Shown: one piece after another, positions 1 through 47,986 of the stretch
Layout of the letters: every line of letters begins with the position of its first letter
Position numbering within the stretch: position 1 is the stretch's first letter
From: Candidatus Woesebacteria bacterium GW2011_GWB1_39_10
GTDB taxonomy: Bacteria > Patescibacteriota > Microgenomatia > UBA8517
Direction of reading: 5' to 3'
Length of the DNA stretch: 64,000 bases
Assembly (NCBI GenBank): GCA_000993205.1
Contig: LBVU01000001.1
Coordinates: 8,155 to 72,154, forward strand
Notes under the pieces: model-generated
What the model was told of the DNA's origin: nothing
Database searches by the model: none
What the model saw: the letters and a program-made list of their open reading frames with translations, nothing else
Made by a program: the position numbers and the translations under genes

Positions 1-287
1 ATGGTGCTAGGGCCACTCCCATTTATAGAGATGTAAATGGCGATCCAATTCAGGAAATACAGTTTGTAATCACAAAACCCAACTGGAAAGGAACACTTCT
101 TGTTACAACCAATTGGGACTATCCCAAAACCCCGCCTCTAATTCAGGTAATTTCGGATGTCGATCCGACACGACCAGGAAAAGAGCTTCACGAGGTAAAG
201 TTGGATGCAGACGGCAAGCCAATTTGGACATCAGAATCGGATTTCATCGATGTGGTGTTTGAGTTGGAAAAGCTCGAGGAGTTGTAA
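1..287 (+). CDS. hypothetical protein, C-terminal fragment running in from the window edge; weak UBC/UEV-like (E2-fold) resemblance
   Basis: Frame-3 open reading from position 3 to the TAA at 285-287, which overlaps the ATG of the next gene (TAATG). The segment TLLVTTNWDYPKTPPLIQV resembles the E2 'F..YPF.PPKV' strand motif. No HPN-Cys active-site motif was seen in the downstream part of the fragment. Confidence 0.35.
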   Translation, partial: GARATPIYRDVNGDPIQEIQFVITKPNWKGTLLVTTNWDYPKTPPLIQVISDVDPTRPGKELHEVKLDADGKPIWTSESDFIDVVFELEKLEEL

Positions 288-1237
288 TGCAAACATTTCG
301 AACGCACGGGCTCCTTCCTTCTGAGGCATTGAAAAAGACGGTTGTCGTTTTAGGATTAGGAAGTGTGGGAGCAAGTTTTGTGGCTGACATACCTTACGAA
401 TTCGGTATGTTGGTCTTGGTTGACCCAGGTAAGTTAAAGGTCGAGAATGTCGAGAGACATCCCCTTGGAAAGTCTCATCTGGGTTGGAATAAAGCAGATG
501 CGGCCAAAGACTTTCTTGTCAAAGAAAAGGGAGTGCCTGCCGGACGTATTAAGGCGTTTTCCCAGACTGACAAGGAAGTATTGCCACTTTTTACCAATGC
601 CGATCTTGTGGTTTGTGCGATCGATGATAAGCCCTCTTGTCGTCGCGTAAATGACTGGTGTTTTGAGCATAGCACACCCAAGCACAATATTCCTGCTATT
701 TACGGAGGCGTATATCCACTGGGTTTGGGTGGGGAGGTTATCGCCATTCCAACTCCGAGGGAAGTTTGCTATCGTTGCGCTGAACGCCAGAGAGCAACCA
801 AAGTTCTCCCTCCGGCACATGCTGGGAATTATGGATTAAACCCCGAACTTCTTGGCAGCGCCGATAGTCCAAAAGCAATCCCGGCTCTTAAAGCGAGTAT
901 TACGGCGATTGTTTCCGAAATGGTGCCTTTGGCCTGGAGAATGCTTTTTCCTGGTGACGATCCAGTTACTCCTCAGATAAGATTTCGTGCGCTTGAGGGG
1001 TGGATCGAAGTTGCAAGGATACCACGGGGTTCTACTGAACTCGAAATTGAAGTCAGAGAAATCGGTATACACAAAAAGTTGCTTTTGGCCGAAAATAACG
1101 CTAAAATAACCCCTGTTGATCCGGAAGGATACCACGGATACCTTATCCGCAGGCAGCCTTGGCCGAAGTTAGTTGTTCAATGGTCGCGATGTCCGTCACC
1201 ACATGGTGGACAGAACGTCCAATTTTCAGATCTTTAA
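287..1237 (+). CDS. E1-like adenylating enzyme, ThiF/MoeB/HesA family
   Basis: Rossmann motif VVVLGLGSVGASF near the N-terminus. An AIDDKPSCRRVNDWC segment resembles the MoeB Mg/ATP site. A CYRC (CxxC) motif is present. Length of 316 aa fits stand-alone bacterial E1-like proteins. Confidence 0.7.
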   Translation: MQTFRTHGLLPSEALKKTVVVLGLGSVGASFVADIPYEFGMLVLVDPGKLKVENVERHPLGKSHLGWNKADAAKDFLVKEKGVPAGRIKAFSQTDKEVLPLFTNADLVVCAIDDKPSCRRVNDWCFEHSTPKHNIPAIYGGVYPLGLGGEVIAIPTPREVCYRCAERQRATKVLPPAHAGNYGLNPELLGSADSPKAIPALKASITAIVSEMVPLAWRMLFPGDDPVTPQIRFRALEGWIEVARIPRGSTELEIEVREIGIHKKLLLAENNAKITPVDPEGYHGYLIRRQPWPKLVVQWSRCPSPHGGQNVQFSDL

Positions 1238-1249
1238 AAGGAGATTGTT

Positions 1250-1576
1250 ATGACCGCCGTTTTGAATAATCGTATGCCCGAAAGTGTCAAGCTGGTTGAA
1301 GATGCCAAGGCGACCTATGAAGCCCTGGCCGCGATGGTCCTTGATGACAGCCATCCTGTCGTCGTTTTGCCAGCCGATGCCAAAGAGCTTCCAGGCGTTG
1401 AACTTCTGGTGAGCCTTGGTGGAGCGACTTTCGTTCCCGAAACCCGCGAGGTGACCCTCCTGGTCGAGGCGCCCGTCGCCCCCGAACAAAAACCGCCTGC
1501 AGGTGTCAAAGAAGCTGCCGCAGCGCAGTCTTCGTTCGCTGGTCAGGGACGCCGCGAAGAAGAACGCCGCGAGTAA
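1250..1576 (+). CDS. small acidic hypothetical protein (108 aa), GC-rich
   Basis: Strong SD (AAGGAG) 8 nt upstream of the ATG. Contains an internal LSLGG at residues about 55-59, followed by an Ala/Pro/Glu-rich tail. No recognisable family. Confidence 0.4.
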   Translation: MTAVLNNRMPESVKLVEDAKATYEALAAMVLDDSHPVVVLPADAKELPGVELLVSLGGATFVPETREVTLLVEAPVAPEQKPPAGVKEAAAAQSSFAGQGRREEERRE

Positions 1577-1806
1577 TTCGCCGGCACGATCTAGAATGAT
1601 CCAGTTTAAACTGGAGTGAGTGCATATACTGCAGTTTTCTAATCCCTCCTTGGGAAAAGAGAACTGCAGTATTTTTTTGGCCAAAACACTTGACCCATAG
1701 TTGATTTTTCTTCTTTTATCCTATAAACTCCCTAAGTTACTAAAGTTGTGATTTTCGTCACAATTGCTCTTTGTCAATTCAAACGTTTACCCAAAAGGAG
1801 TAATAA

Positions 1807-2772
1807 ATGGCTAAAAGTGATAGTAAACCTGCAGGTAAGGCCGACGCCTCATCGCCAAGGGATTCAGCTCCCGGTTCAGATCCTGTCAAGACCGTTTCCC
1901 AGGTCCCCGCGGTTCCTGCCGCACCTCCCGCGCCTGAAGTCATGAATGCCGCAGATCTGGTTGAACGCATTCTCGGTGATATGCTGTCCCTGCGACCTGT
2001 GAGGCCGCTCTTAAGTCGCGTTGCTGCGCTGCTTTCCTATAAGCAGATGGGTGTACCTGTGGAAGAGGCTCTTGCCGAACTGGATTTGGCAGATATCTCG
2101 CTGAGGACCATCACTCCTGGGATCGGTGCGATGATCAAGGCCGCCGATGAAGCTGACCTGGCTTTAGTGCGGGAATTCAATGAAAAAGCTGGCGAGGGTC
2201 GCTTGGTGAAAGTTGATGATATGGATCCTGGTCCCGCCAAAGAAGCAGAGCTAAAAGAGCATGCTGATAATCGCCAAAAGGCGGCAGCGCTTTTAGGTCG
2301 AGCGCAACCTCTTTTGACCGCAATTTTTGCGGTGGAAGATAAAGGTGGGGTAGCTGGCTGGTTCCGTAAGGCTGTGGACAAAGTTGACGAACTCACCTTG
2401 GTTAAACCTGGGGAAAGCCCCGCTGAATTTCCCGGGTGGCAGACTGCTCCCAAACTCAATGAGAGCATTCCTGCTGTGAAAGCCCTCCTGAGCGAGCTGA
2501 AGTTGATCGAGAGTACCTACGCCCGCGTTCGGGATCCCAGAAAGGCTCTCGCACAACTCGCCAACCTGAACATCAAGTTCACGGCTGAACGGGTTCGTTT
2601 CGTTCTCGATTCCTGTGTGGAATTGGCCAATGCTCAGGTTGCCCAGTCGGCGAAGGCGGAAGGAGTTGCTGAAGCCGATACTGCCGCTTTTGTGGCCAAA
2701 GCACAAAAGAATGACTCCGTTCGCGAGATCGCTCAAAGCGCTCAGGATTACCTGGATTCCGCCAAGAAGTAG
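1807..2772 (+). CDS. hypothetical protein with a disordered Pro/Ala-rich N-terminus and a helical C-terminus
   Basis: Long ORF with an RBS (AAAAGGAG) upstream. GC is about 58%, far above the window average. No recognisable motifs. Confidence 0.5.
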   Translation: MAKSDSKPAGKADASSPRDSAPGSDPVKTVSQVPAVPAAPPAPEVMNAADLVERILGDMLSLRPVRPLLSRVAALLSYKQMGVPVEEALAELDLADISLRTITPGIGAMIKAADEADLALVREFNEKAGEGRLVKVDDMDPGPAKEAELKEHADNRQKAAALLGRAQPLLTAIFAVEDKGGVAGWFRKAVDKVDELTLVKPGESPAEFPGWQTAPKLNESIPAVKALLSELKLIESTYARVRDPRKALAQLANLNIKFTAERVRFVLDSCVELANAQVAQSAKAEGVAEADTAAFVAKAQKNDSVREIAQSAQDYLDSAKK

Positions 2773-2803
2773 GGGAAAAAACGTTTGAAGTAAGAATTGC
2801 CGG

Positions 2804-3673
2804 ATGAGGCTTGTTTTTAGCCTTGTCCGGCAATATTTTTTTAATATTATGCAAATAGAACAAGAAATACATGATTCAGAACAAAAATTAGATTATGTTT
2901 TTGGAGTAATCCAAAAACCGGCCAGTCGTGGCAAAAACTTCATTATTGGATGGGACATAAGCGGAAATCCGGTAGTAAAATTGACTGTCAGGGAAGATGA
3001 AGCAATTACCAGGAAGGGTTATGAGACTCGAGGCAGAAATGCAGTGCTGGAGTTCCCTTTTAGCAGGGAAATTGCAGAATTTACGCCCAGAGCCCTTGAG
3101 TTTCTAGAGATGGCGAAGCCTCAGGACAATGCAGATCAAGGAAGGCAATTTACAGAAGATGTTGTTAACATTGCCTGTGCCAATGGGACTGGGTCTACAA
3201 GTTTCTTACAGGTAAAAGAAAGGGTTTTATTGGGTGCAATAATGGATACGCAGTTAACATGGGGGATAGGAAATCCGCCCAGGTCTTCATATAGTGTGGC
3301 CATTCCAGAAGAAGAAACAGGAACTTTGAACTTTTTGCTTTTTAGCCCTGGCAACGGCGCTTCTAACGAATTTGCATATAGAAGATTTTTACTTGGGGTG
3401 ATAAAAACTTTGGCCACAATTGATAGAAATCAGAATCCACCTGACCAAAAAGGATATGTGTATGTTGTAGAACAAGTAGTACAGAAACTTGAGAGTCTGG
3501 CTCAGGCTGAGAGATCGCAGGCTGGAGTTTTGGAAAAAATACAAATGGAAATGGGTGTTTTGGATCAAATTCGGGGTGTTGCGCTTCTTAACACACTTCC
3601 CGTAGATGGTTTACGAGTGGTTTTGAGGAACTTCAAAAATGTAGTAGACGAGAGTTTTGCTAACGGAAAGTAA
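2804..3673 (+). CDS. hypothetical protein (the true start is possibly the ATG near 2849)
   Basis: Long ORF followed by a hairpin terminator. No family recognised. Confidence 0.45.
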   Translation: MRLVFSLVRQYFFNIMQIEQEIHDSEQKLDYVFGVIQKPASRGKNFIIGWDISGNPVVKLTVREDEAITRKGYETRGRNAVLEFPFSREIAEFTPRALEFLEMAKPQDNADQGRQFTEDVVNIACANGTGSTSFLQVKERVLLGAIMDTQLTWGIGNPPRSSYSVAIPEEETGTLNFLLFSPGNGASNEFAYRRFLLGVIKTLATIDRNQNPPDQKGYVYVVEQVVQKLESLAQAERSQAGVLEKIQMEMGVLDQIRGVALLNTLPVDGLRVVLRNFKNVVDESFANGK

Positions 3674-3704
3674 TGCTTCTTCTTTTCGGATTTTGCCAAA
3701 AAAA

Positions 3705-3758
3705 GTGCCGGTACGGTTGTTGCTGACTGTGTGTCAACGTTAACCGCACCGGCATTTA
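3705..3758. terminator. bidirectional intrinsic terminator hairpin between convergent genes
   Basis: TGCCGGTACGGTT ... AACCGCACCGGCA forms a 13-bp stem with one mismatch. An A-run lies upstream and TTT downstream. Confidence 0.5.
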
Positions 3759-3787
3759 CTTACAAGAACCTATCTAGTCTTGCGCTC

Positions 3788-5626
3788 TTAGCGTAGTGAA
3801 CCGGGGTTAATCTTGACCTCGATTCGGACATAACGATCGGCCTGGTTAATGGCCGGATCGCAGGACAAAGTCCCGACCCGTGCGTACACAGAGATGAGCG
3901 GTGCGGGGATTCCTGCGCCTTGAATCAAGGCAAACTGGATGTTTGTAGCCCGCTGTAGAGCGAACTCTCGAACATATTCTTCACTATACTGGCACCACCC
4001 GGCTGCGCTACCCGTAATCAGGATAACGACGTTTTGTGTCTGCGCCATCAACTGCTGAAGCGATTTAGAACAGACAACGAGGTTGTCGTAGTCTGGTGTG
4101 TTTGGTCGGAGGAAATCCTCTCCAGCCTTGTAGCTGAGTTGGCTCACGCAGTTGAGCTCAAAAGCCGTGGGTAAGTTAACTAGCTGGGAGCCGTCCAACG
4201 CAGCAGAGGGCAAAACCTGGAAAGGTGTGTAACTGGTATTGGGCAGGGTCGTACCACTTCGAGGCCGAAGTTCCGGGTGCTGGGTGACGTATGTGGCCAA
4301 TTGCCCGAGATATTTAGTTTCACGCAAGTCGGCAACGTCATTAAGCGTTCCCAAAGGCACACCACCGTAGGCCCAAATAGCACCAAAGTCAACAAACCGT
4401 TTGTCCAGGATGTCAGTTTGGTTTGCCAGAAGTAGGTTGGAATCCAGGCTAGCCAGGCCATATGTATCAAGCCAAAGATGCATATCATTTTCGGCCGACT
4501 CTGGAAAGACATACGTCCAGTCGTTGGTATTGTATTCAATACCGTTGAAAGTAAATGTCCAACTGGCGATGGCTTCACCGGCTGCCTTCAGATTTTCCTG
4601 CTGAACCTTCAAACCTCCAAACCAATCAACCAGGAACCAGAAAACAGCATCAGGCTTTTCCGCGTTTGCCTTGTGGCTAACCACGATAATGTCTTTGAGG
4701 TTGCGGAGCCAGGTGCTGTTGACCAGAATTTGGCTTTGGGATGGGTCGCCTATTCCTTCGTCGATACAAGGAATCCAGCCGGCCACGGCGTCAGATTTGC
4801 CGTCAGCAAAGGCTTGGCATGCGTCTTCTACTGAAAAGTCGTGCCACATTCCACTGGTGTCGTACTCGCCTGTAAGCCAGGTGACGCTATTTGGAGACAT
4901 CCCTGCGGCACTCATAACAGAAAGCACTTGGAATTGACCGGCTGCGTTGGGGCTAACTGCGATAACGCAACCTTCCAGGTCATTGAACCGGGCGATGGGT
5001 TTGCCTGGACAACCAACTCGACCCACAAGGAGTGCTCGTGTTTTGTCGGCTCCGTCGGAAACACCTACATCAGTGATCCACTTACCCATCTGGGGGTTGA
5101 GCCTCAGTGTGTCACTGGTAGTCAAGATAATATCGCAAGTTCCATCCTGCATCCATCTTGCTTGGTCGCCCTCGTCATCACTTATCAAGACGTTTCCGTC
5201 AAGGTCGGTGAACCCCAGTGGGAGCACGTTCAAAATGTAGGGACGATTACTGTTGTCGGCGACAGCTGCCTGGAGAACCGAAAAATACGGTCCAAAGTAG
5301 AAAAGGCAAACCGTGATAGTTTGCTTTTCTGCGCCGGCAGGTGGAATCTGGGGAACGTTTTGTTGCTCACCATCATTACCTCCGGGTTGCGGCGCGGGCA
5401 CATAGGGCGTGTCGTTGGTTGGTGTCGTCGGTTCGGCGGGGAGGTTGTTATAGAGGTAAATACCTCCGGCGCTCACAATCAGACAAACAATGATCAGCAC
5501 ACTCAAACCTCCCCAGAATAGCCCGTTGCGTTGGCGACGGGGTGGGCGAGGGGTTTGGGGATTTCCCAAATCTCCAAGATCCAATGTCGTTGGTTGATTC
5601 AGTCCACGAAAACTTCGATTTGCCAT
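3788..5626 (-). CDS. membrane-anchored extracytoplasmic protein (N-terminal TM helix, large secreted domain)
   Basis: 612 aa. A hydrophobic segment GLSVLIIVCLIVSAGGIYL follows a basic N-terminus. Otherwise unknown; possibly a solute-binding-like domain. Confidence 0.55.
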   Translation of the reverse strand: MANRSFRGLNQPTTLDLGDLGNPQTPRPPRRQRNGLFWGGLSVLIIVCLIVSAGGIYLYNNLPAEPTTPTNDTPYVPAPQPGGNDGEQQNVPQIPPAGAEKQTITVCLFYFGPYFSVLQAAVADNSNRPYILNVLPLGFTDLDGNVLISDDEGDQARWMQDGTCDIILTTSDTLRLNPQMGKWITDVGVSDGADKTRALLVGRVGCPGKPIARFNDLEGCVIAVSPNAAGQFQVLSVMSAAGMSPNSVTWLTGEYDTSGMWHDFSVEDACQAFADGKSDAVAGWIPCIDEGIGDPSQSQILVNSTWLRNLKDIIVVSHKANAEKPDAVFWFLVDWFGGLKVQQENLKAAGEAIASWTFTFNGIEYNTNDWTYVFPESAENDMHLWLDTYGLASLDSNLLLANQTDILDKRFVDFGAIWAYGGVPLGTLNDVADLRETKYLGQLATYVTQHPELRPRSGTTLPNTSYTPFQVLPSAALDGSQLVNLPTAFELNCVSQLSYKAGEDFLRPNTPDYDNLVVCSKSLQQLMAQTQNVVILITGSAAGWCQYSEEYVREFALQRATNIQFALIQGAGIPAPLISVYARVGTLSCDPAINQADRYVRIEVKINPGSLR

Positions 5627-5678
5627 TTTCTTTCTCCTTTTGAGTGAAAATTGACCTGGTTTTGGAATTCAGCAGATA

Positions 5679-5722
5679 AAGAAATCACCTCTTTTTTGAG
5701 AAGTTGGATTAGGTGATTTCTT
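5679..5722. other. 12-bp-stem inverted repeat (AAGAAATCACCT / AGGTGATTTCTT) with a 20-nt loop in a divergent/terminal intergenic region
   Basis: Perfect inverted repeat read directly from the sequence. Function unknown. Confidence 0.35.
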
Positions 5723-5864
5723 GAGCATACACCACAGTTTGGAACTCAATTCATGGATGTGGTGTCTGTAGGTTTTGTTAAAGAACAACTAAACCTTATT
5801 AACCAGGGAGGATTAATTTGCTGGAAGATTTTATATCAAGAAGGGGTATTTGTCAAGCCTATAA

Positions 5865-7367
5865 TTATTTAAAAAGTGGTATAAAGCTGTCAGAAAATCC
5901 GACAATACCACTTTGTTCACGGATGGTGGCTCGGCCTCCACCTACGATACGTGTTCTACCAGAAGAATCTTTCCAAATATAGACCTGAACCGGTTCGGGC
6001 AAACCGCAATGGTTAACTATTTTTTGTTCTCTGGGATTGCCGACGCCGCCAAGAACGTCTTGGTAGGCTCCAATACAAGGCGCGGCGACAACCAGCCCTT
6101 TAAAGTTGTTGGTCATTACGACACTGGCCCTTGGATTGGCGGTTAACTGCTCTTTTGTAGGTACTGTACTATTCGAGTCGCAGCTCAAATCATGGAAACG
6201 GACGCGAGTGAGGGGGGAATTTGCGTTATTTGCAGGTATAAAATTGAAAGAGTCCTCCTGAATCCATAAATCCGGTATATTCAGTAAGTTTCCACCCAGC
6301 TCAAGCCATGGGATTCCGTCTGAACTATTAATAAATGTGTTGGTTATCGGATAAACGAGGTGTTCACAGTTTGTGGCTATAAAGCTTCCGCTTTCTATAA
6401 CTATTGTAGGTAATTCTACACCGTAACGTTCACAGATATTTTTAACGCCTCGCAAAAAGGGAACTAGGAATTCCTGGTGTTTGTATCCGCTATCAATTGA
6501 CGGAAATCCGCCACCGAGATTGAGGTCGGTGAGTGTTGGGTATTTACGCTTTAAAACAGCATATTGTTCGGCAGCGATTAGAGCACTTTTGGCAAAAGCT
6601 TCCGGGTTTACTGCGCTTGCGGCACTGCTCATGGCGTGAAGCATTGTAAATTTGAGATTTGGTGACGCCGCTATTTTAGCTGCCTCGTTTTGGACTCCTT
6701 CCCAATCGAATCCGAATGGAGACACCACACCCGGCAATTGTTTTTTGTCTTCCAAAACGGCAAATTTAGATCTTATACCCACACTCATTCTGCCTTTTCT
6801 GACATTTCGTCTAAAAAAGTCGGACTCACCTTGGACAAGAACGGGTGTAATATCGAGTCCTTTTTCAAATGCCTCAATTATGGTTTCTGCGTAGCCCTTA
6901 TCAAAGCGGTGAACACGCAGTTTTGGGCCATTACAAATTACTTTCTTGTCTTGCGCGATTAGACCTTTGCTTCTCAGCCACATAAAATTATGAAGGCCAA
7001 GTTCACCGCTTGTTTCCATGTGCAGCTCCTTAAGGGCGGCGGCCACAACAGGCGCCTTGAAGTTGGCTTTTTCGGCAAAATGAAATCGGAACTTGTCTTG
7101 AGGGTAACCAGCTACCTCTGCGGCTGTTTTGCAGATTCTTTTTATATCGCGCCCTCTTTTTTCAGGGATGGTGAGATCTGTAATCTGGGTTGGGGCATCG
7201 AATTTTTGGCCATGTTCTTGGTGAATGTCAATTACTCTTAATCCGTGTTCGCGAAAACAAAGATTCCAATCCCTGTCATAGGCAAAAATTTCCCAGACAG
7301 CAGGGTTTTTAAGTGTTTCTCTGAGTAATGTTTCTGCTGTTGTTTGACCGATTGTTCTTTCCCACAT
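5865..7367 (-). CDS. PLP-dependent decarboxylase, Orn/DAP/Arg decarboxylase fold (SpeA-like arginine decarboxylase candidate)
   Basis: 500 aa. Motifs ESGSFIATNCEHLVYPI and a C-terminal beta-domain CGLPEP... are typical of fold-III decarboxylases. Confidence 0.6.
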   Translation of the reverse strand: MWERTIGQTTAETLLRETLKNPAVWEIFAYDRDWNLCFREHGLRVIDIHQEHGQKFDAPTQITDLTIPEKRGRDIKRICKTAAEVAGYPQDKFRFHFAEKANFKAPVVAAALKELHMETSGELGLHNFMWLRSKGLIAQDKKVICNGPKLRVHRFDKGYAETIIEAFEKGLDITPVLVQGESDFFRRNVRKGRMSVGIRSKFAVLEDKKQLPGVVSPFGFDWEGVQNEAAKIAASPNLKFTMLHAMSSAASAVNPEAFAKSALIAAEQYAVLKRKYPTLTDLNLGGGFPSIDSGYKHQEFLVPFLRGVKNICERYGVELPTIVIESGSFIATNCEHLVYPITNTFINSSDGIPWLELGGNLLNIPDLWIQEDSFNFIPANNANSPLTRVRFHDLSCDSNSTVPTKEQLTANPRASVVMTNNFKGLVVAAPCIGAYQDVLGGVGNPREQKIVNHCGLPEPVQVYIWKDSSGRTRIVGGGRATIREQSGIVGFSDSFIPLFK

Positions 7368-7370
7368 ATG

Positions 7371-8081
7371 TTATTTGTCTTTTCCGGCGATATCTTTGGC
7401 CTTTTGGACCAAGGGGTTGTTGTCATCTAAGCCAAGCTTTTCTGCCTCAGAAAGCCACTCAGTTAGATGTCTTTCGATTATTTTTTCTTGGACAATCTGG
7501 GTAACGCGTTTGACTTTGAAAACCATGCTGTCACGGCTACCACCAAACCCCATAGGAGCGGTTTCGTCCAAGGTGTCGCTATCGGCACCACCTTGCCATT
7601 TAGCGTAATAACTTTGCAGAGCGTTAAGTCTATAAAGAAGTCTTTGATCGGCGGACAGACTATCCCAACCCGGAATCGACTCTTCGTTTAACTGCGCTAT
7701 TGCTCCCTTTTCAACAAAAACATCTATTGTCTCAAGTGTCTCTGGAGACACGGGGCTTGCTTCTGGGAAAACTGGTTTGACGTTGGGGAAGAGTAGTCCA
7801 ATGGTCTTTGAGGCTGCTGCGCCAAGTTCTTTCAATCTCCCGCGAAGTCTATTTTGGGATTCTTCATCCATGAGCCCGACTGCTGGACCTCCGCTTAGAC
7901 TTTGTATCTCAGCATTAATCATCCCATACCTTGCAAGATAAAAAGGTCTGGGTTGTTCACCCGAAAACGTCGGAAAAGCTTCGACTGTTAGGGCCTCCCA
8001 GTTTCCACTTTCGACAGCAGCTTTTAAGGCCTCTTGTTCCGGCACAAGCCCGACTTTGGCTGCGGACATCTCAGTTATCAT
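7371..8081 (-). CDS. hypothetical protein, probably co-transcribed upstream of the decarboxylase
   Basis: ORF ends 3 nt before the decarboxylase start. No family recognised. Confidence 0.45.
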   Translation of the reverse strand: MITEMSAAKVGLVPEQEALKAAVESGNWEALTVEAFPTFSGEQPRPFYLARYGMINAEIQSLSGGPAVGLMDEESQNRLRGRLKELGAAASKTIGLLFPNVKPVFPEASPVSPETLETIDVFVEKGAIAQLNEESIPGWDSLSADQRLLYRLNALQSYYAKWQGGADSDTLDETAPMGFGGSRDSMVFKVKRVTQIVQEKIIERHLTEWLSEAEKLGLDDNNPLVQKAKDIAGKDK

Positions 8082-40767: not shown

Positions 40768-43101
40768 ATGTTTATAGATCAGATAAATTTTACCGGCATA
40801 TTGTTTGCAGCGATCGCGATTGCGGTCTTGATTTTAATGCTATCGGCTCTGGGGTATGCAATTTTTATATTTTTTAAGAATAAGAATAGGGAAGAGGCAT
40901 CAATTGATTCGGTTCTTTTGCAGGTGGCGCTTCCCAGGAATAACGAATCAAAAATTGATGTGATGGAGCAGTTGTTTTCATCGCTTTACACCTTAAAGAA
41001 GGGGGGTTGGAAACAGAAGTTTTCAATTCAACCCACAGTTTCTTTTGAAATTGTTGCCAAACAGGAAGATATCAGGTTTTATGTTTGGTGTCCCAAGAAA
41101 ATAAAGGATTTGGTAGAAAAACAAATTAACGGCGCATACGCAGATGCTGAGATAATTGAAATTGACGAATATAACGTTTTTACAAAAGAGGGCAGAGTTG
41201 CTTATAAGTCATTCCAACTGGGTAAAGGCAATTTTTATCCAATCAAAACCTTTAAAGATTTACCCACGGATCCAATGAGCGCCATTACCTCGGCTTTGGC
41301 CAAAATGGGCCCTGAAGAGGCGGCTGTTATCCAGGTGCTACTTTCACCTGCGGAAAGCGATTGGCAAAAAGAAGGGGGAAAGTTTATCTCCGATACTAAA
41401 AAACAGGAAAGCGACCCCGAAAAGGCAAAATATTCTACCCCTGCAAAGACCTTAGAGGCTGTTGAAAATAAAATCGCAAAACCCGGTTTTGAAACCTCTG
41501 TTCGCATTGTGGTCGTTTCGACCGATGAAGATTCAGCAAAAAGCCATGTAACGAATATTGCAGGGGCCTTTGCCCTGTTTGCCGGTGACTTAAACAACCT
41601 AAAAAGCAGAAAAATATGGAGAAAGGGATCGTTTATGGAAGATTTTCTTTACAGGTACCAGCCAATGTTCAATCTTTTTGGGAATCACACATCAATTTTA
41701 AATTCCGAAGAACTTGCCACGATCTTTCATTTTCCCAATAGACAGATAACAACACCTCACATTTTTTGGTTAAATTCAAAAACAGCGCCGGCCCCGGCAC
41801 AAATTCCAACGGAAGGTCTCTATTTGGGGGTAAGCAATTACAGAGGAATAAAGCGTCCGGTATTTTTGGGAAATGAAGACAGAATGAGGCATGTTTACAT
41901 CATCGGAAAAACCGGAACCGGAAAGTCTGAGATTTTGAAGGATATGGTTATTCAGGATATTAAAGAGGGGAAAGGTGTTTGTTTTATGGATCCTCACGGT
42001 GACGCGATTGAAGATATTTTAAAAATGGTTCCGCCGGAGAGGGCCGAAGATGTAATTTATTTTAATCCCAGTGACACTGAAAGGCCTTTAGGGCTTAATC
42101 TTCTTGAAGCCAGAACCGAGGACGAAAAGCATTTTGCCGCAACAGCTGTAATTAACATGATGTACAAACTTTTTGACCCCTACAAAACGGGAATTGTAGG
42201 GCCCAGATTTGAACATGCAGTCAGAAATGCCATGCTTACGGCAATGTACGAGCCGGGAAGCACATTTGTCGAAATTATGAGGATTCTGACCGACTCAAAG
42301 TTTGTTCAAGAGCTTTTGCCAAAAGTTACAGACCCGATTATTAGACGTTATTGGACAGATCAAATTGCCCAGACTTCCGACTTTCATAAATCAGAAGTTT
42401 TGGATTACATTACATCAAAGTTCGGAAGATTCGTTACAAATAAATTAATTAGAAACATAATCGGGCAATCTCAAAGTTCTTTTGATCTACGTAAAGTTAT
42501 GGATGAAGGAAAAATTCTTTTAATTAATTTAGCCAAAGGAAGTTTAGGAGAGGAAAACTCAAACTTTTTAGGACTAATCCTTGTTCCACGCGTTTTAATG
42601 GCTGCCATGAGCAGGGTGGATATGCCGATGGAACAAAGAAAGGACTTTTATTTCTACGTAGACGAGTTTCAGAATTTTGCCACACCAGATTTTGCTGTAA
42701 TTTTGTCAGAGGCCCGTAAGTACCGGCTTGGGCTTTGTGTCGCCAACCAGTTTATAGGGCAAGTTGAAGAAGAGGTTAAAAACGCAGTCTTCGGAAATGT
42801 TGGTACGATTGTCGCTTTCAGAGTTGGTGTAACAGATGCTAATTATTTGGCTCACGAATTTGCTCCCGTTTTCGGTGAAGATGATTTACTTAATGTTGAG
42901 CGTTATCATGCGTTTTGTAAAACAATAGTTAGCAACGAACCCGTTCCTCCTTTTTCAATGGACCTTACAAAAGACATGAGTAAACAAAAAGCCGCCGAGA
43001 GTGAACGAATTGCAGAAATCATAAAAGAAATGAGCCGTCTTAAATATGGACGAGACGAAAAATTAGTGGAAGCGGAGATAACCCGCAGAGCGAAGCTCTG
43101 A
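40768..43101 (+). CDS. FtsK/HerA/TrwB-superfamily P-loop ATPase with an N-terminal TM anchor (type IV secretion coupling-protein-like, TraD/VirD4/TrwB_AAD_bind-like)
   Basis: Walker A YIIGKTGTGKSE and Walker B YFYVDEFQNF. N-terminal TM helix. 777 aa. Confidence 0.55.
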   Translation: MFIDQINFTGILFAAIAIAVLILMLSALGYAIFIFFKNKNREEASIDSVLLQVALPRNNESKIDVMEQLFSSLYTLKKGGWKQKFSIQPTVSFEIVAKQEDIRFYVWCPKKIKDLVEKQINGAYADAEIIEIDEYNVFTKEGRVAYKSFQLGKGNFYPIKTFKDLPTDPMSAITSALAKMGPEEAAVIQVLLSPAESDWQKEGGKFISDTKKQESDPEKAKYSTPAKTLEAVENKIAKPGFETSVRIVVVSTDEDSAKSHVTNIAGAFALFAGDLNNLKSRKIWRKGSFMEDFLYRYQPMFNLFGNHTSILNSEELATIFHFPNRQITTPHIFWLNSKTAPAPAQIPTEGLYLGVSNYRGIKRPVFLGNEDRMRHVYIIGKTGTGKSEILKDMVIQDIKEGKGVCFMDPHGDAIEDILKMVPPERAEDVIYFNPSDTERPLGLNLLEARTEDEKHFAATAVINMMYKLFDPYKTGIVGPRFEHAVRNAMLTAMYEPGSTFVEIMRILTDSKFVQELLPKVTDPIIRRYWTDQIAQTSDFHKSEVLDYITSKFGRFVTNKLIRNIIGQSQSSFDLRKVMDEGKILLINLAKGSLGEENSNFLGLILVPRVLMAAMSRVDMPMEQRKDFYFYVDEFQNFATPDFAVILSEARKYRLGLCVANQFIGQVEEEVKNAVFGNVGTIVAFRVGVTDANYLAHEFAPVFGEDDLLNVERYHAFCKTIVSNEPVPPFSMDLTKDMSKQKAAESERIAEIIKEMSRLKYGRDEKLVEAEITRRAKL

Positions 43102-44120: not shown

Positions 44121-44192
44121 AGGCCTGTCGTTCAACGGTTAGGACACTTGTCTTATAAACAGGTGACAATGGTTCGACTCCATTCAGGCCTA
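44121..44192 (+). tRNA. tRNA-Ile with anticodon UAU (CCA not encoded)
   Basis: Manual cloverleaf fold. Acceptor AGGCCTG/CAGGCCT with A73, close to the E. coli tRNA-Ile acceptor. D-stem GTTC/GGAC. Anticodon stem CTTGT/ACAGG with loop CTTATAA. T-arm AATGG-TTCGACT-CCATT. Confidence 0.65.
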
Positions 44193-44204
44193 CACAGAAT
44201 TAAA

Positions 44205-44240: not shown

Positions 44241-44789
44241 ATGGGTGGCTACAAAAACCTTCTTGTTTACAGGCTATCTGTAACAATTTTTGATTTTACT
44301 GTTATTTTTTGTGATAAATATTTATTTGATTTGAAGTTCAAAAGAACCGTTGAGCAAATGGTTCAGGCCGGGAGAAGTGGCAAACAAAACATAGTCGAAG
44401 GCTCTAAGGAAATTTCTTCAGCCTCGGACATGATGCTTACCAGTGTTAGTAGGGCTTCTTACTCGGAACTTTCAGAAGACTATGAAGACTATTTAAGGCA
44501 ACGGCATTTACCAATTTGGGATAAAAATGATCCGAGAGTGTTAAAAATTAGAAGTTTTAAAGAAACAATTAGCAAGGAAACTAGTTTGTCCAATTTGTCA
44601 AAGTGGACCAATTTAGACTACAACAACTCTGAAAACTTTGCAAATTTAATGGTTTGTTTGTGTATGAAACAGGGCTATTTGTTAGATCAACTTATAAGGG
44701 CAAAAGAACAAAAATTCGTACAAGAGGGTGGATTTAGGGAAAACTTGTTTAAGAAGCGCAGGGAAAACAAATTTGGCAAATTGGACTAA
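44241..44789 (+). CDS. four-helix-bundle protein (23S rRNA intervening-sequence protein-like / TIGR02436-like)
   Basis: Core RTVEQMVQAGRSGKQNIVEGSKEISSASDMMLTSVSRASYSELSEDYEDYL resembles the four-helix-bundle family consensus (R.A.SI..NIAEG ... GS..EL). Confidence 0.5.
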   Translation: MGGYKNLLVYRLSVTIFDFTVIFCDKYLFDLKFKRTVEQMVQAGRSGKQNIVEGSKEISSASDMMLTSVSRASYSELSEDYEDYLRQRHLPIWDKNDPRVLKIRSFKETISKETSLSNLSKWTNLDYNNSENFANLMVCLCMKQGYLLDQLIRAKEQKFVQEGGFRENLFKKRRENKFGKLD

Positions 44790-44815
44790 TTAGTCTAATT
44801 GGGCAAATTAGAGTT
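44765..44815. repeat. direct repeat, right copy (CAAATTTGGCAAATTGGACTAATTAGTCTAATTGGG)
   Basis: Matches 44205-44240. Confidence 0.6.
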
Positions 44816-45671
44816 CTATAAGGGTTTGTTTCTTTCCAGGTTCGGTTATTTGGGCAAGCTCCAGATATCTTTCAGTAGTAGAAAGACGCTTGTGTCCTGA
44901 AACCTGAGAAAGAAGGACAATATCCACTCCGGCTTTAAGATTTTCCACCATAAAAGTTGTTCTTAAATCGTTTACAGAATAACTTGGAAGTTCGGCCCTT
45001 TGCATGTATCTGGAAATTGAGGCCCTGATGTTTCTTACTGCCAGTGGTTTACCGTTTTTGCTGATAAAAACATAAGGGGAATCGGATTTAGGCCTAATTT
45101 TCATATAAGAATCAAGAACCTCTTGGGCCGGTTTGTTCAAAGGAGCTGTTCTTTCCGGTTGGGTGGCATAAGATTCAATTTTAAGAGATCCGTCTGTTGA
45201 ACGTTCAATCTTGAGATTTGCAACCTCAGAGATTCTAAGGCCGGTTTGTAGGATAAGTTCGACTATGGCCGCAATTCTGACATCGTTTCTTACTACGTCC
45301 CTGAGGGCCCTGTACTCAAGCTGTGAGAGGAATTTGGGTAAGGCATTGTCAATCTTAGGGTGGGCAACAGAGGAACTTGGGTCAAAGCTGATTGCGTTTT
45401 CTGTAATCATCCATCTAAAAAATGTCTTAACGGCGTTTAGCTTGCGGCTAACGGACTTGGGTGTGTATTTGTCGGCCAAAAGCTGGTCACGGAATGAATC
45501 CAAATCCTCTGGTTTTACCTGATCGGGGGTGGCTCTTTCCCTTTTTAACAAATAGCCGGTAAGTTGTTCAAGATCGCTTCTATATGCAAGAATAGTCGCA
45601 GGAGAGCGCCCTTTAACTTTGAGGGACTCTATAAATTTGGGAAGCAGATTTTTGATTGTATCTTGTGTCAT
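44808..45671 (-). CDS. tyrosine site-specific recombinase, XerC/XerD-like
   Basis: N-terminal core-binding segment (ILAYRSDL). Catalytic R..H-x-x-R..Y segment (GLRISE, HKRLSTTERYL). Confidence 0.75.
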   Translation of the reverse strand: MTQDTIKNLLPKFIESLKVKGRSPATILAYRSDLEQLTGYLLKRERATPDQVKPEDLDSFRDQLLADKYTPKSVSRKLNAVKTFFRWMITENAISFDPSSSVAHPKIDNALPKFLSQLEYRALRDVVRNDVRIAAIVELILQTGLRISEVANLKIERSTDGSLKIESYATQPERTAPLNKPAQEVLDSYMKIRPKSDSPYVFISKNGKPLAVRNIRASISRYMQRAELPSYSVNDLRTTFMVENLKAGVDIVLLSQVSGHKRLSTTERYLELAQITEPGKKQTLIEL

Positions 45672-45740: not shown

Positions 45741-46139
45741 ATGAAAAACGATTTTGTCAAGAGGCTAAAAGTTAAGTTTGATAAGCTTGGCGGGTACGTT
45801 ATTTGGATTTTGGTCGTGCTTTTGACCCTTTCTTTGGTTCAAAATATAGGTAAAGTTAAGAGGATTAGAGGGGAAATTGCTGCCGAAAAGGCGAAAATTG
45901 TAAAGATGAAAGCCGCCAATGAGATTCTTGCCAACCAAGTTGCCCAGGCTCAAAAACCCGAGTTTATAGATAAAGAGATTAGGAATAAGCTTGGACTGGT
46001 TAAGACGGGGGAAACAATAGTTGTTTTGCCCAATGAGGAGGTTTTAAGAAGTTTGGCGCCAAAACTAGAAACTGAGCAGGAAGCCCTGCCTGATCCTAAT
46101 TGGAAGAAATGGGTAAATCTATTCTTGCTCCAAAAATAA
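45741..46139 (+). CDS. FtsB/DivIC-like septum formation initiator (start chosen at the ATG 45741 rather than 45564, which overlaps the recombinase)
   Basis: N-terminal TM helix followed by a coiled coil (RIRGEIAAEKAKIVKMKAANEILANQV). Confidence 0.55.
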   Translation: MKNDFVKRLKVKFDKLGGYVIWILVVLLTLSLVQNIGKVKRIRGEIAAEKAKIVKMKAANEILANQVAQAQKPEFIDKEIRNKLGLVKTGETIVVLPNEEVLRSLAPKLETEQEALPDPNWKKWVNLFLLQK

Positions 46140-46502
46140 CCTCCCCAGATTCTTGGATGAATCCACGTTCAGACGAACCGTGTTTTTCTGTTTGTTGCGG
46201 GGTCAGGAGTTGCGCCTGACCTGAAAGATTATGAGCCTTTCGTGCACTGTACACTACCCCGCATGTATCTAACCTCGGAATTATAACATTTTGTTCGTGT
46301 AACTCCAAAACCAAAACCACGCTACCATAATTCGAGTTATAGTAGTATGAGGCAAGCTATTGGTCATTTGAGTGTGAAATGCTAAAATAGCCGTATGTCA
46401 GGGTAGCCCCGCCTGCATCCGCCAGCAACTGCGTAGCTGTGGGCGGAAGCATTGCGGGCAGGTCAGTGGTAGTAGCGGACGTTTCATGATACATATTTGG
46501 AG

Positions 46503-46540
46503 CCTGGGTAGCTCAGTTGGTTAGAGCGTGGCAATCATGA
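46503..46540 (+). other. orphan partial copy of the tRNA-Met 5' half (acceptor 5' strand + D-arm + anticodon stem 5' side)
   Basis: CTGGGTAGCTCAGTTGGTTAGAGCGTGGCAATCAT duplicates the start of the tRNA at 46550 with 2 mismatches. Confidence 0.6.
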
Positions 46541-46549
46541 AATAAATTT

Positions 46550-46626
46550 GACTGGGTAGCTCAGTTGGTTAGAGCACGGCAATCATAACGCCGGGGTCGA
46601 GAGTCCGAATCTCTCCCCAGTCACCA
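46550..46626 (+). tRNA. tRNA-Met (anticodon CAU), CCA encoded
   Basis: Manual fold. Acceptor GACTGGG/CCCAGTC. D-arm GCTC-AGTTGGTTA-GAGC. Anticodon loop ATCATAA. T-arm GAGAG-TCCGAAT-CTCTC. 3' end ACCA. One A-C mismatch at the base of the anticodon stem. Confidence 0.7.
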
Positions 46627-46638
46627 AATTTATTGCTA

Positions 46639-46700
46639 ACAGGAATTTCATTTCTGTTATAACGCTGAGGTCGAGGGTTCGAATCCCTCCCCTGGCACCA
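46639..46700 (+). other. tRNA 3'-half-like fragment (anticodon-loop remnant through T-arm, acceptor 3' strand and CCA), preceded by a 7-bp-stem hairpin
   Basis: TTATAACGCTGAGGTCGAGGGTTCGAATCCCTCCCCTGGCACCA. No matching 5' acceptor strand upstream. Confidence 0.5.
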
Positions 46701-46712
46701 AATGCGCAACAG

Positions 46713-46773
46713 ACAGGAGTCGGGCTCCTGTCATAAGCGTCAGGTCACAGGTTCGATCCCTGTTGCCGGCACA
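46713..46773 (+). other. second tRNA 3'-half-like fragment preceded by a hairpin
   Basis: ACAGGAGTCGGGCTCCTGT hairpin, then CATAAGCGTCAGGTCACAGGTTCGATCCCTGTTGCCGGCACA. T-arm present. No 5' half. Confidence 0.45.
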
Positions 46774-46948
46774 GGGAATATGGGAGAAAAATTTGTTTCC
46801 AGTGTCTTAGATTTACCACCTTCCTACGAGGAGGTAGTGGCCATACAGGGGGAGCGGTTCACTTCGAAAATTCGATGAACACTCACAGTGTTGTAGTTTC
46901 TCAGAAATATGTTGAGTGAGATGAATGTAAAGTTAGTGTTAGGTATTC

Positions 46949-47986
46949 GTGATAAACTTAGTCATGGATAATAAGCAAAGCTTGCTATCAGATAGTAAGA
47001 GAATTTTAACCGGTGATAGGCCCACAGGCAAAATGCATCTGGGGCATTATGTTGGGAGCTTGAAGAATAGAGTAAAGCTTCAGGATAGTTATGACCAATT
47101 TGTGATGATCGCAGATGTCCAAGCGCTAACCGACAACTTTGAAAATCCCGAAAAAGTCCGCGCGAGTATTCGCGAAGTCCTTCTTGATTATCTTGCGGTT
47201 GGAATTGATCCAACTAAAACCACAATTTTAATTCAATCTATGATACCGGAAATTGCGGAGCTTACAGTTTATTACCTCAATTTGGTTACTCTTGAGCGCG
47301 TTTTAAGAAATCCTACTGTTAAAGATGAAATAAAACAAAAAAGGTTTGAAAAATCTCTTCCCGCAGGTTTTGCAATGTATCCGGTTTCCCAAGCTGCCGA
47401 CATTACAATTTTCAATGCAGACCTTGTTCCAGTGGGAGAGGACCAGGTTCCCATGATCGAGCAAACGCGAGAGATCGTCCGCAAATTCAATTCATTATAT
47501 GGTGACGTTTTTGTAGAACCGGAAGCATTGGTGGGGGAAGTTAAACGCCTCCCAGGAATTGACGGAAATAGTAAAATGGGCAAAAGTTTGGGGAATGCAA
47601 TTTATCTAAGCGACAGCGAAGAAGAGTTGAAGAAAAAAGTAATGGGAATGTATACGGATCCTACCAGAATTCATGCCACAGACCCGGGCAAAGTTGAAGG
47701 AAACCCTGTTTTTATTTATCACGATGTTTTTAATCCCGATAAAGATGAGGTGGAAGACTTGAAAGATCGTTATCAAAAAGGGACTGTGGGGGACGTTGAA
47801 GTTAAAGAAAAATTATTTGTCGCTCTTAATGATTTTCTCAAACCGATTAGAGAGAGAAGAAAAGACTTTGAAAATAATTCGGAAGAATTAAACAAAATTC
47901 TTAAAGTGGGAACAGAAAAAGCGAGAAATGTTGCTAAAGAAACAATGCAAAAAGTAAGAAAAGCTATGAAGATCGATTATTTTTGA
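46949..47986 (+). CDS. trpS: tryptophanyl-tRNA synthetase
   Basis: HIGH-like [10 protein letters not shown] and KMGKS (KMSKS) motifs. 345 aa. Confidence 0.8.

Follow-up and report, generated by a model that had tools for sequence, protein, structure and literature searches.

Nested halves of tRNA-Met genes at a Woesebacteria locus point to serial insertion of small tRNA replacement cassettes

We analyzed a tRNA-Met locus within a 64-kb stretch of the genome of Candidatus Woesebacteria bacterium GW2011_GWB1_39_10 (hereafter the window, to which all unprefixed coordinates refer), where an intact tRNA-Met(CAU) gene is enclosed by separated halves of other tRNA-Met genes. The gene order runs from tRNA-Ile(UAU) (44121–44193) through an open reading frame (ORF) for a four-helix-bundle protein, a Xer-like recombinase gene (44808–45671, reverse strand), DivIC/FtsB and a tRNA-fMet-like gene (46194–46263, reverse strand) to the nested locus, which is followed by trpS (from 46964), a gene for a tRNA-binding protein and FtsH. 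The TrpRS encoded here is 100% identical to an NCBI protein of Candidatus Woesebacteria bacterium GW2011_GWA2_40_7, and the relatives used for comparison, whose retrieved loci carry L-numbers (L004, L105 and so on), are Woesebacteria and Microgenomates metagenome-assembled genomes.

The intact gene, which we call X, occupies 46550–46626 on the forward strand, as do all other parts of the array, and encodes its own CCA end; the original prediction for this locus had identified it, and both ARAGORN and the Rfam tRNA model (59.1 bits) agree. That prediction had also described an orphan 5′ copy upstream and two 3′ halves downstream. Searches with 5′-half and 3′-half profiles bear these out and add a further piece. 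The upstream copy, 5′Y, spans 46502–46538 and terminates exactly at the anticodon CAT (E=1.8e-12 to the 5′-half profile in the 824-nt spacer; 46504–46538 is 94% identical to 46552–46586). Downstream, 3′Y (46661–46700) runs from tRNA positions 37–38 (AA) through ACCA (E=1.7e-14); the stretch 46659–46703 matches 46585–46629 at 84% identity and, over 45 nt, reaches 93% identity to a segment of L004 that comprises the 3′ half of its intact tRNA and the first 3 trailer nucleotides. The last piece, 3′Z (46735–46773; profile match 46732–46772, E=2.1e-10), shares 94% identity over 32 nt with the 3′ half of the intact tRNA of L013. The 3′ halves had been thought to lack 5′ partners, a view that does not survive the identification of 5′Z, an overlooked 5′ half at 46454–46487 (GCGGGCA..TCAGTGGTAGTAGCGGACGTTTCAT). 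Its nhmmer match begins at 46463 (46463–46487, E=5.5e-5) and its start at 46454 was extended by eye; from the D-loop through the anticodon, 23 of 24 positions equal those of the L094 tRNA. Along the locus the order is 5′Z, 5′Y, intact X, a hairpin with 3′Y, and a hairpin with 3′Z, so that three 5′ pieces and three 3′ pieces stand in mirror order, every 3′ half being matched by a 5′ half of its own farther upstream.

The pieces are nested partners, arranged like Russian dolls, rather than one 5′ copy accompanied by an array of 3′ ends. 5′Z and 3′Z (46735–46771) form 6 of 7 acceptor pairs and all 5 anticodon-stem pairs (GACGT with GCGTC), compared with only 0–1 of 5 when the anticodon-stem strand of 5′Z is set against the other 3′ halves. 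When halves were joined in silico, ARAGORN called tRNA-Met for both 5′Z+3′Z and 5′Y+3′Y (with 3′Y as 46661–46700), and no tRNA for 5′Z+3′X, 5′Z+3′Y or 5′X+3′Z; the sole call for 5′Y+3′Z was an aberrant tRNA whose anticodon has 4 nt (cata). Because X and Y are similar, the joins 5′Y+3′X and 5′X+3′Y were likewise called tRNA-Met, and the partner assignment of Y therefore rests on position, not pairing. Partners in relatives pair too: the V halves of L105 match at 7/7 acceptor and 5/5 anticodon-stem positions and its W halves at 7/7 acceptor positions, while the outer partners of L097 pair at 7/7 and 4/5.

All interruptions share one anatomy. Every break falls directly after the anticodon (CAT/AA, between positions 36 and 37) and the 3′ halves resume at AA (37–38), so that the junctions in the window and its relatives all read CAT/... 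on the left and ...YAT/AA on the right. The inserted material consists, in order, of GA, a leader of 11–14 nt, a complete tRNA-Met, a trailer, a hairpin of 7–10 bp and a terminal T-YAT; a single insert measures ~120 nt, of which 77 are tRNA, plus whatever nests within it. Trailers are 34 nt long in the window (46627–46660 and 46701–46734) and 11–62 nt in relatives. That of cassette X opens with AAATTTATT, continues into hairpin H1 (46637–46659; −7.8 kcal/mol, z=−5.3) and ends in TAT, and that of cassette Y opens with AATGCGCAACAG, continues into hairpin H2 (46712–46732; −14.7 kcal/mol, z=−4.45) and ends in CAT. Each hairpin is more stable than all 200 of its shuffled versions. The original prediction had noticed both and took them to precede the 3′ halves; each of them belongs instead to the inserted cassette, at its 3′ end.

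The leader of cassette X (46539–46549, GAAATAAATTT) forms the 5′ strand of an inverted repeat whose 3′ strand is the AAATTTATT of the trailer. The two arms, 46541–46550 and 46625–46634, are 100% complementary over 10 nt and abut the tRNA, and in RNA folds leader and trailer extend the acceptor stem by 8–10 bp past a bulge of 3–4 nt. We refer to this structure as a clamp. With a clamp defined as a leader/trailer inverted repeat of at least 9 nt abutting the tRNA, and 38 intact genes of this type compared, it is present in all three that lie inside an outer 5′ half and in none of the other 35 (Fisher p ~1e-4). Its two strands covary between cassettes: AATAAATTT with AAATTTATT in the window, CACAAATTT with AAATTTGTG in L105, and CGCAAAATT with AATTTTGCG in L097. 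Plain genes have no clamp and carry a homologous −10 box (TAnAAT) 7–9 nt upstream instead. The leader of cassette Y (46488–46501, GATACATATTTGGA) contains ATTTGG at 46495–46500, which, read from the sequence, complements CCAAAT at 46698–46703.

A search with the half-gene profiles over about 45 related loci recovered the same nested architecture, with different sequences, in two further lineages of Woesebacteria. In L105 two layers surround an intact gene, with clamps CACAAATTT/AAATTTGTG and TCAAATTT/AAATTTGA; L097 has one layer, with the clamp CGCAAAATT/AATTTTGCG, and its locus is reproduced in four assemblies. Four further loci (L003, L004, L086 and L096) hold only downstream 3′ relics, which start with ATAA or AA, the sequence upstream of the L086 locus being cut by a contig end; a hairpin ending in T-YAT also occurs in L004 and L096. 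About 35 relatives have a plain tRNA-Met gene with no clamp. The comparison that the original prediction had proposed, asking whether an identical arrangement is conserved in all relatives and hence functional, thus shows that it is not conserved, which is consistent with relics rather than function.

Some cassette parts are shared between genomes. A 22-nt junction of the X trailer (ATTTCTGTTATAACGCTGAGGT) is identical in L004, the Y trailer is homologous to that of the inner cassette of L105 (ACAGACAG...TGTCAT), and trailer and hairpin families are also shared between L097 and L004. These shared families argue that the cassettes belong to a common lineage and did not arise by random breakage. 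Moreover, the acceptor stems of tRNA-Met diverge widely among relatives whose TrpRS proteins are 80–90% identical, which implies frequent replacement of tRNA-Met.

X is the sole functional copy in the array. The outer copies Y and Z do not look functional and are probably dead relics that are decaying or being deleted, because they are absent from most relatives, vary in number and sequence, and are decayed: 5′Z lacks 2 nt of the D stem, Z has an acceptor mismatch (G3xG70) and so does Y (T4xT69), the W half of L105 is cut within the D loop, and the L097 population has only two single-nucleotide polymorphisms in about 1085 nt, both in outer halves. The same features count against split tRNAs or regulatory tRNA mimics, which the original prediction had entertained as alternatives. 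The 3′ relics outnumber the 5′ relics, an asymmetry that fits deletion through recombination between the closely similar 5′ halves; the same route would account for chimeras such as the L090 gene when set beside X. At a permissive threshold, Rfam found no ribozyme, intron, T-box or known small RNA in the array, and Intron_gpI had no match at E<=10 in 46000–47000 or at E<=1 in L105 2250–2750. Scanning of the spacer yielded one promoter-like site (46361–46388, forward strand; −35 TGGTCA, 16-nt spacer, TG-extended −10 TAAAAT) and no terminators, and this single site presumably drives the whole nested array.

A still older layer may be present. The sequence GTCAGGGTAGC at 46397–46407 (forward strand), which begins 8 nt past the promoter-like site, corresponds to the first 11 nt of a GTCARGG-type tRNA-Met, although its profile match is weak (E=0.16), and its distance to the −10 box equals that of the resident plain tRNA gene in L087. 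It may represent a fourth, oldest layer, truncated and with its 3′ partner gone. Between this fragment and 5′Z lies a GC-rich, hairpin-forming filler (46408–46453, forward strand) with candidate 5′ debris (GCGTAGCT) at 46431–46438 and a weak 5′-half profile match at 46429–46438 (E=0.17); none of the fetched relative loci contains a homologue of the filler.

We favor serial, nested, site-specific insertion of small tRNA-Met replacement cassettes, with only X functional, and give this reading a probability of roughly 70%. Under it, the locus would have started as an ancestral single-copy gene for an elongator-type tRNA-Met upstream of trpS. A cassette of ~120 nt with a complete foreign tRNA-Met would have split the resident gene exactly after the anticodon, and the newcomer would later have been split at the same point by a further cassette, in at least two events. 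Through leader/trailer complementarity each cassette would fold into a cloverleaf, with the clamp adding 8–10 bp to its acceptor stem, and the array would be transcribed from the resident promoter-like site with tRNA released only from the innermost copy. Nesting requires that a whole unit be inserted at one point, since tandem duplication, Campbell-type integration or an integrase crossover between two tRNA copies would yield tandem or chimeric genes. Because the site is precise and repeatedly used, the orientation fixed, the unit equipped with a clamp and a terminal hairpin, and the trailers homologous across genomes, we infer that the cassette is a mobile unit acted on in trans. The clamp might keep the near-identical outer halves from interfering with how the inner tRNA folds or is processed. 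As to the enzyme, our first guess is a recombinase or transposase that is encoded elsewhere, depends on hairpins and possibly works on single strands; our second is homing-type repair following a DNA cut in the anticodon loop.

Several observations weigh against this reading. Both 5′ and 3′ relics occur in only three lineages, and look-ups of further relatives revealed no filled/empty polymorphic pair within one population. The cassette lacks a local hairpin at its left end, and its junctions do not agree on one short repeat (TCAT, AT or none); no known transposition chemistry therefore fits cleanly. Pfam scans of about 30 window ORFs found no transposase, HUH, TnpB or homing-endonuclease gene, and no free, circular or extrachromosomal copy of the cassette was found in viral, phage and plasmid collections. 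Finally, some local duplication or gene conversion is superimposed at 5′Y and 5′X, because these halves are identical at 34 of 37 positions, including an identical run of 24 nt.

The last observation also speaks for a purely local origin, in which repeated duplication, slippage or gene conversion in a structured, repetitive locus produced the array with no mobile unit. Chimeric exchange is shown by L090, whose tRNA positions 8–50, read by eye, equal those of X, and alleles have been swapped at the same promoter-relative position, for example in L142 versus L105. However, tandem duplication yields head-to-tail rather than nested copies, the layers are different tRNA lineages by their acceptor and anticodon stems, the junction nucleotide is constant in every layer and genome, and clamp and hairpin are specific to the cassettes and recur in different genomes; we consider this origin unlikely. 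A functional nested precursor, whose outer halves are rejoined once the inner tRNA is excised and which thereby supplies several tRNA-Met isodecoders per transcript, would explain why the break adjoins the canonical intron position, why leader and trailer are complementary in a manner reminiscent of the split-half helices of Nanoarchaeum, why there is one promoter and why the V copy of L105 and the outer copy of L097 are still perfectly paired. Set against it are the damage to the outer copies of the window (D-stem deletion, acceptor mismatches), the truncation of W in L105, the missing arrangement in most relatives, the concentration of L097-population polymorphisms in the outer halves and the negative searches for a ribozyme or intron family; protein-based tRNA splicing is, besides, not known in Bacteria, and we regard this reading as very improbable.

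The original prediction had read the locus as attL/attR scars of serial integration or excision. Its core survives, namely that the extra pieces are non-functional relics of repeated insertion; the attL/attR array is not supported, given that the layout is nested and nothing on the kb scale separates the repeats. For integrases that target tRNA genes, the anticodon loop is a well-known sublocation, and scars left by tyrosine-integrase elements that cross over there, bring a new 3′ half and later lose their interiors would match both the break point and the four relatives with 3′ relics only; the tRNA–trpS spacer is, in addition, a hotspot for variable genes (toxin-antitoxin pairs, small ORFs). 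Such scars should, however, consist of 3′-only direct repeats and leave no orphan 5′ halves, whereas three lineages have orphan 5′ halves, mirror-ordered and paired with 3′ halves, and two to four orphan 5′ pieces lie upstream at the present locus. The distance from the tRNA end to the next relic is only 32–35 nt, candidate attP/attB identity is merely 2–4 bp, and the only integrase is the syntenic Xer-like gene, also found in relic-free relatives, all of which makes integrase scars rather unlikely. An assembly artefact from strain mixtures at a repetitive locus might be suspected, as contigs L177 and L178, from independent assemblies, both break off at window position 46459, in the 5′Z fragment of the array. 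The locus is no such artefact, because the 824-nt spacer is base-for-base identical in five other assemblies made by different assemblers; the junctions share 2–4 nt, far below any k-mer size, the L097 locus recurs in its four assemblies, and the chance of an artefact is negligible.

The link drawn by the original prediction to the nearby Xer-like recombinase finds no support. In each of the seven other lineages for which that flank was retrieved (L013, L105, L181/L182, L187, L189/L190, L193 and L198), its gene lies at the same place between tRNA-Ile and DivIC; only L105 and L193 among them have relics, and because it is syntenic with or without relics its proximity is no evidence. The protein scores as a generic XerC/XerA/XerD-like recombinase, reaching 151 bits against XerC and staying under the cut-offs of all specific families; with 48 bits to the integron integrase model (cut-off 265), it does not score as a phage or integron integrase. 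Viral contigs scanned with right-junction TYCTGTYATAASSSTSAGGT and left-junction TCATGAMAYAAATTTGNC patterns gave 13 matches, all 13 chance matches in coding sequence with no adjacent tRNA, and BLAST searches of phages and plasmids with the entire nested core returned only generic tRNA-Met/Ile similarity that covered no flank. An ORF beside tRNA-Met in L003 that appeared LAGLIDADG-like by eye was discarded as a candidate, as Pfam, PHROGs and PDB searches support only an N-terminal helix-turn-helix.

Among known systems, tRNA-targeting integrase elements, with attP over the anticodon or T loop, resemble the cassettes in anticodon-loop insertion, in an invader that restores a working tRNA, in displaced relics and in stacked serial events. 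They differ in that a whole tRNA gene is carried here and both old halves are displaced, which leads to nesting, and in that the unit is only about 120 nt, has no integrase or cargo, and shares a core of just 2–4 bp. IS200/IS605 palindrome-associated elements and integron attC cassettes are small, oriented and non-coding for their own enzyme, and have a 3′ hairpin, fixed-motif insertion and no terminal inverted repeats or regular target duplication. The cassettes are alike in size, orientation, want of an enzyme gene of their own and 3′ hairpin, and may be alike at their ends: in the 4–8 junctions available, all inserts follow (T)CAT and all right ends are T-YAT, and no consistent duplication or terminal inverted repeat was seen. 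In contrast to those systems, they have no left-end hairpin and no R/L boxes, and their cargo is the target gene itself. The hairpin is at the right end only, the left end being a clamp strand whose partner lies beyond the tRNA, and no Y1 (HUH) transposase was present among the about 30 ORFs scanned within the window. The attC boxes RYYYAAC...GTTRRRY are likewise absent, H1 having only AAC...GTT and H2 GAC...GTC. Miniature inverted-repeat elements of the DDE type do not correspond either, as the inverted repeat here flanks the tRNA and not the element ends and the junction repeat is TCAT, AT or none.

Intronless homing by free-standing endonucleases, as in T4 seg/mob, targets a conserved essential sequence and copies in a resistant replacement allele with the selfish unit. 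The likeness lies in the essential target and the replacement allele copied in; however, no endonuclease gene is found in or beside the window cassette, and its ends are precise and identical across layers, unlike the products of sloppy repair.

Group I introns of these same bacteria likewise interrupt a CAU tRNA within its anticodon loop: orthologues of the tRNA-fMet gene contain Rfam Intron_gpI at 62–74 bits (L006 2278–2500, L008 1659–1917, L012 3606–3807), and the exon ends in L012 suggest insertion between positions 33 and 34. Group I introns in tRNAs were reported to be frequent in metagenome-assembled genomes of unnamed phyla (bioRxiv 10.1101/2020.01.27.920355). The cassette, by comparison, has no ribozyme core, ends in T rather than omega G, is at ~120 nt too short for a ribozyme, and replaces its host gene instead of being spliced out to restore it. 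Archaeal split, tri-split and intron-containing tRNAs (Nanoarchaeum, Caldivirga; PMC4033280) share a break near position 37 and complementary flanks, whereas the present halves are in a bacterium, adjacent, nested and decaying, with an intact replacement gene between them; inspection of the junctions by eye found no bulge-helix-bulge. The catalogue of tRNA gene types in that source includes no tRNA-within-tRNA class (PMC4033280), nor does its text use the term “nested”, and our literature searches likewise turned up no account of one tRNA gene nested inside another, although such absence is no proof of novelty. We class nested tRNA replacement as a variant of target-restoring insertion into tRNA genes.

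Other schemes were tried on the junctions and rejected: TA/TAA target duplication of the IS630 or Harbinger type, terminal inverted repeats, P-nucleotide-type palindromes and integron R boxes each fail to fit all of them. Were cassette X excised as a circle, its junction would read ...TTTCTGTTAT/GAAATAAATTT. The corresponding circular junction of the inner L105 cassette is a perfect 10-bp palindrome (TGTCAT/GACA) and that of cassette Y matches at 9 of 10 positions; the other two circular junctions do not match, and we draw no claim from these palindromes.

In L012 (1953–2043), an orphan 5′ copy of tRNA-Ile(UAU) with another acceptor strand lies directly upstream of the intact tRNA-Ile and carries an insert of roughly 33 nt past the anticodon loop; a similar process may thus act on other tRNA genes. 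L086 (41–107) contains an orphan 3′ half with an insertion of roughly 25 nt in the T loop, and just upstream of it is a 16-nt motif (AAGCGAAGCTTGCAAG) that recurs in L002 (7418) and beside the tRNA-Ile relic of L012 (2016).

The surroundings of the locus vary as well. Among close relatives the orientation of tRNA-fMet to tRNA-Met is convergent, divergent or tandem (L004 versus the window, L005 and L013), which implies small inversions around the locus. Two strains of the L097 lineage, L193 and L194, have the nested locus in common and wholly different DNA upstream (DivIC versus an ORF with an RNHCP domain), the divergence upstream of L193 position 915 marking a rearrangement breakpoint or a chimeric contig beside tRNA-fMet. 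In a lineage resembling GWA2_40_7b, L186 encodes a small GIY-YIG-domain ORF (820–1080, reverse strand) beside the tRNA-fMet/tRNA-Met pair, with a plain tRNA-Met gene followed by a Phd/ParE pair. The window's own tRNA-fMet-like gene was found by ARAGORN and falls below the Rfam threshold; it has U1/C1 opposite A72, a T loop of CGCAACT instead of TTCAACT and an odd D arm, while its orthologues score 43–48 bits and have T loops TTCAACT, CGCAACT or TGCGACT. The trpS leaders of L005 (2373–2462) and L004 (about 1935–2075) contain a short T-box-like element (AAGGTGGCACCACGG and then a terminator; 32 bits, below the Rfam threshold), and the 190-nt trpS leader of the window (46774–46963) has no T-box-like match and no homologue in the fetched loci.

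Farther upstream in the window, the four-helix-bundle gene between tRNA-Ile and the Xer-like gene (44241–44789) encodes a 182-aa protein of the 23S rRNA intervening-sequence family (TIGR04258/TIGR02436) and is absent at the corresponding spot in L013 and L105. A 777-aa VirD4/TraG-type type IV coupling protein is encoded at 40768–43101, 3.5 kb upstream of the locus. Positions 1–8000 have a GC content of 45–49%, against about 40% elsewhere, and most of their large ORFs are without a Pfam match, one being ThiF-like; this segment may be foreign DNA or an island.

Serial insertion of replacement cassettes would mean that an essential, apparently single-copy tRNA gene has been replaced repeatedly, without loss of function, in a bacterium with a reduced genome, and it would account for the very different tRNA-Met sequences of close relatives. 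It would also provide a recent, traceable bacterial case of anticodon-loop splitting, which bears on the debate over the origin of split and intron-containing tRNA genes. On the practical side, nested loci break short-read assemblies and leave orphan tRNA halves, which annotation pipelines overlook or call wrongly. A further proposal, which we regard as possible rather than probable, is that the cassettes constitute a new class of minimal selfish element: a mobile tRNA gene of ~120 nt whose sole cargo is a functional version of the very gene that it destroys. Mobilised in trans and able to move between genomes, it would enter the anticodon loop of the resident tRNA-Met gene, perhaps in the form of folded single-stranded DNA, would be kept foldable by its clamp, might excise and so restore the outer gene, and would drive the rapid turnover of tRNA-Met alleles in Woesebacteria. 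If the cassette is truly mobile, it would be about the smallest conceivable “addictive” element, and the enzyme that inserts it would be a recombinase highly specific for the loop sequence.

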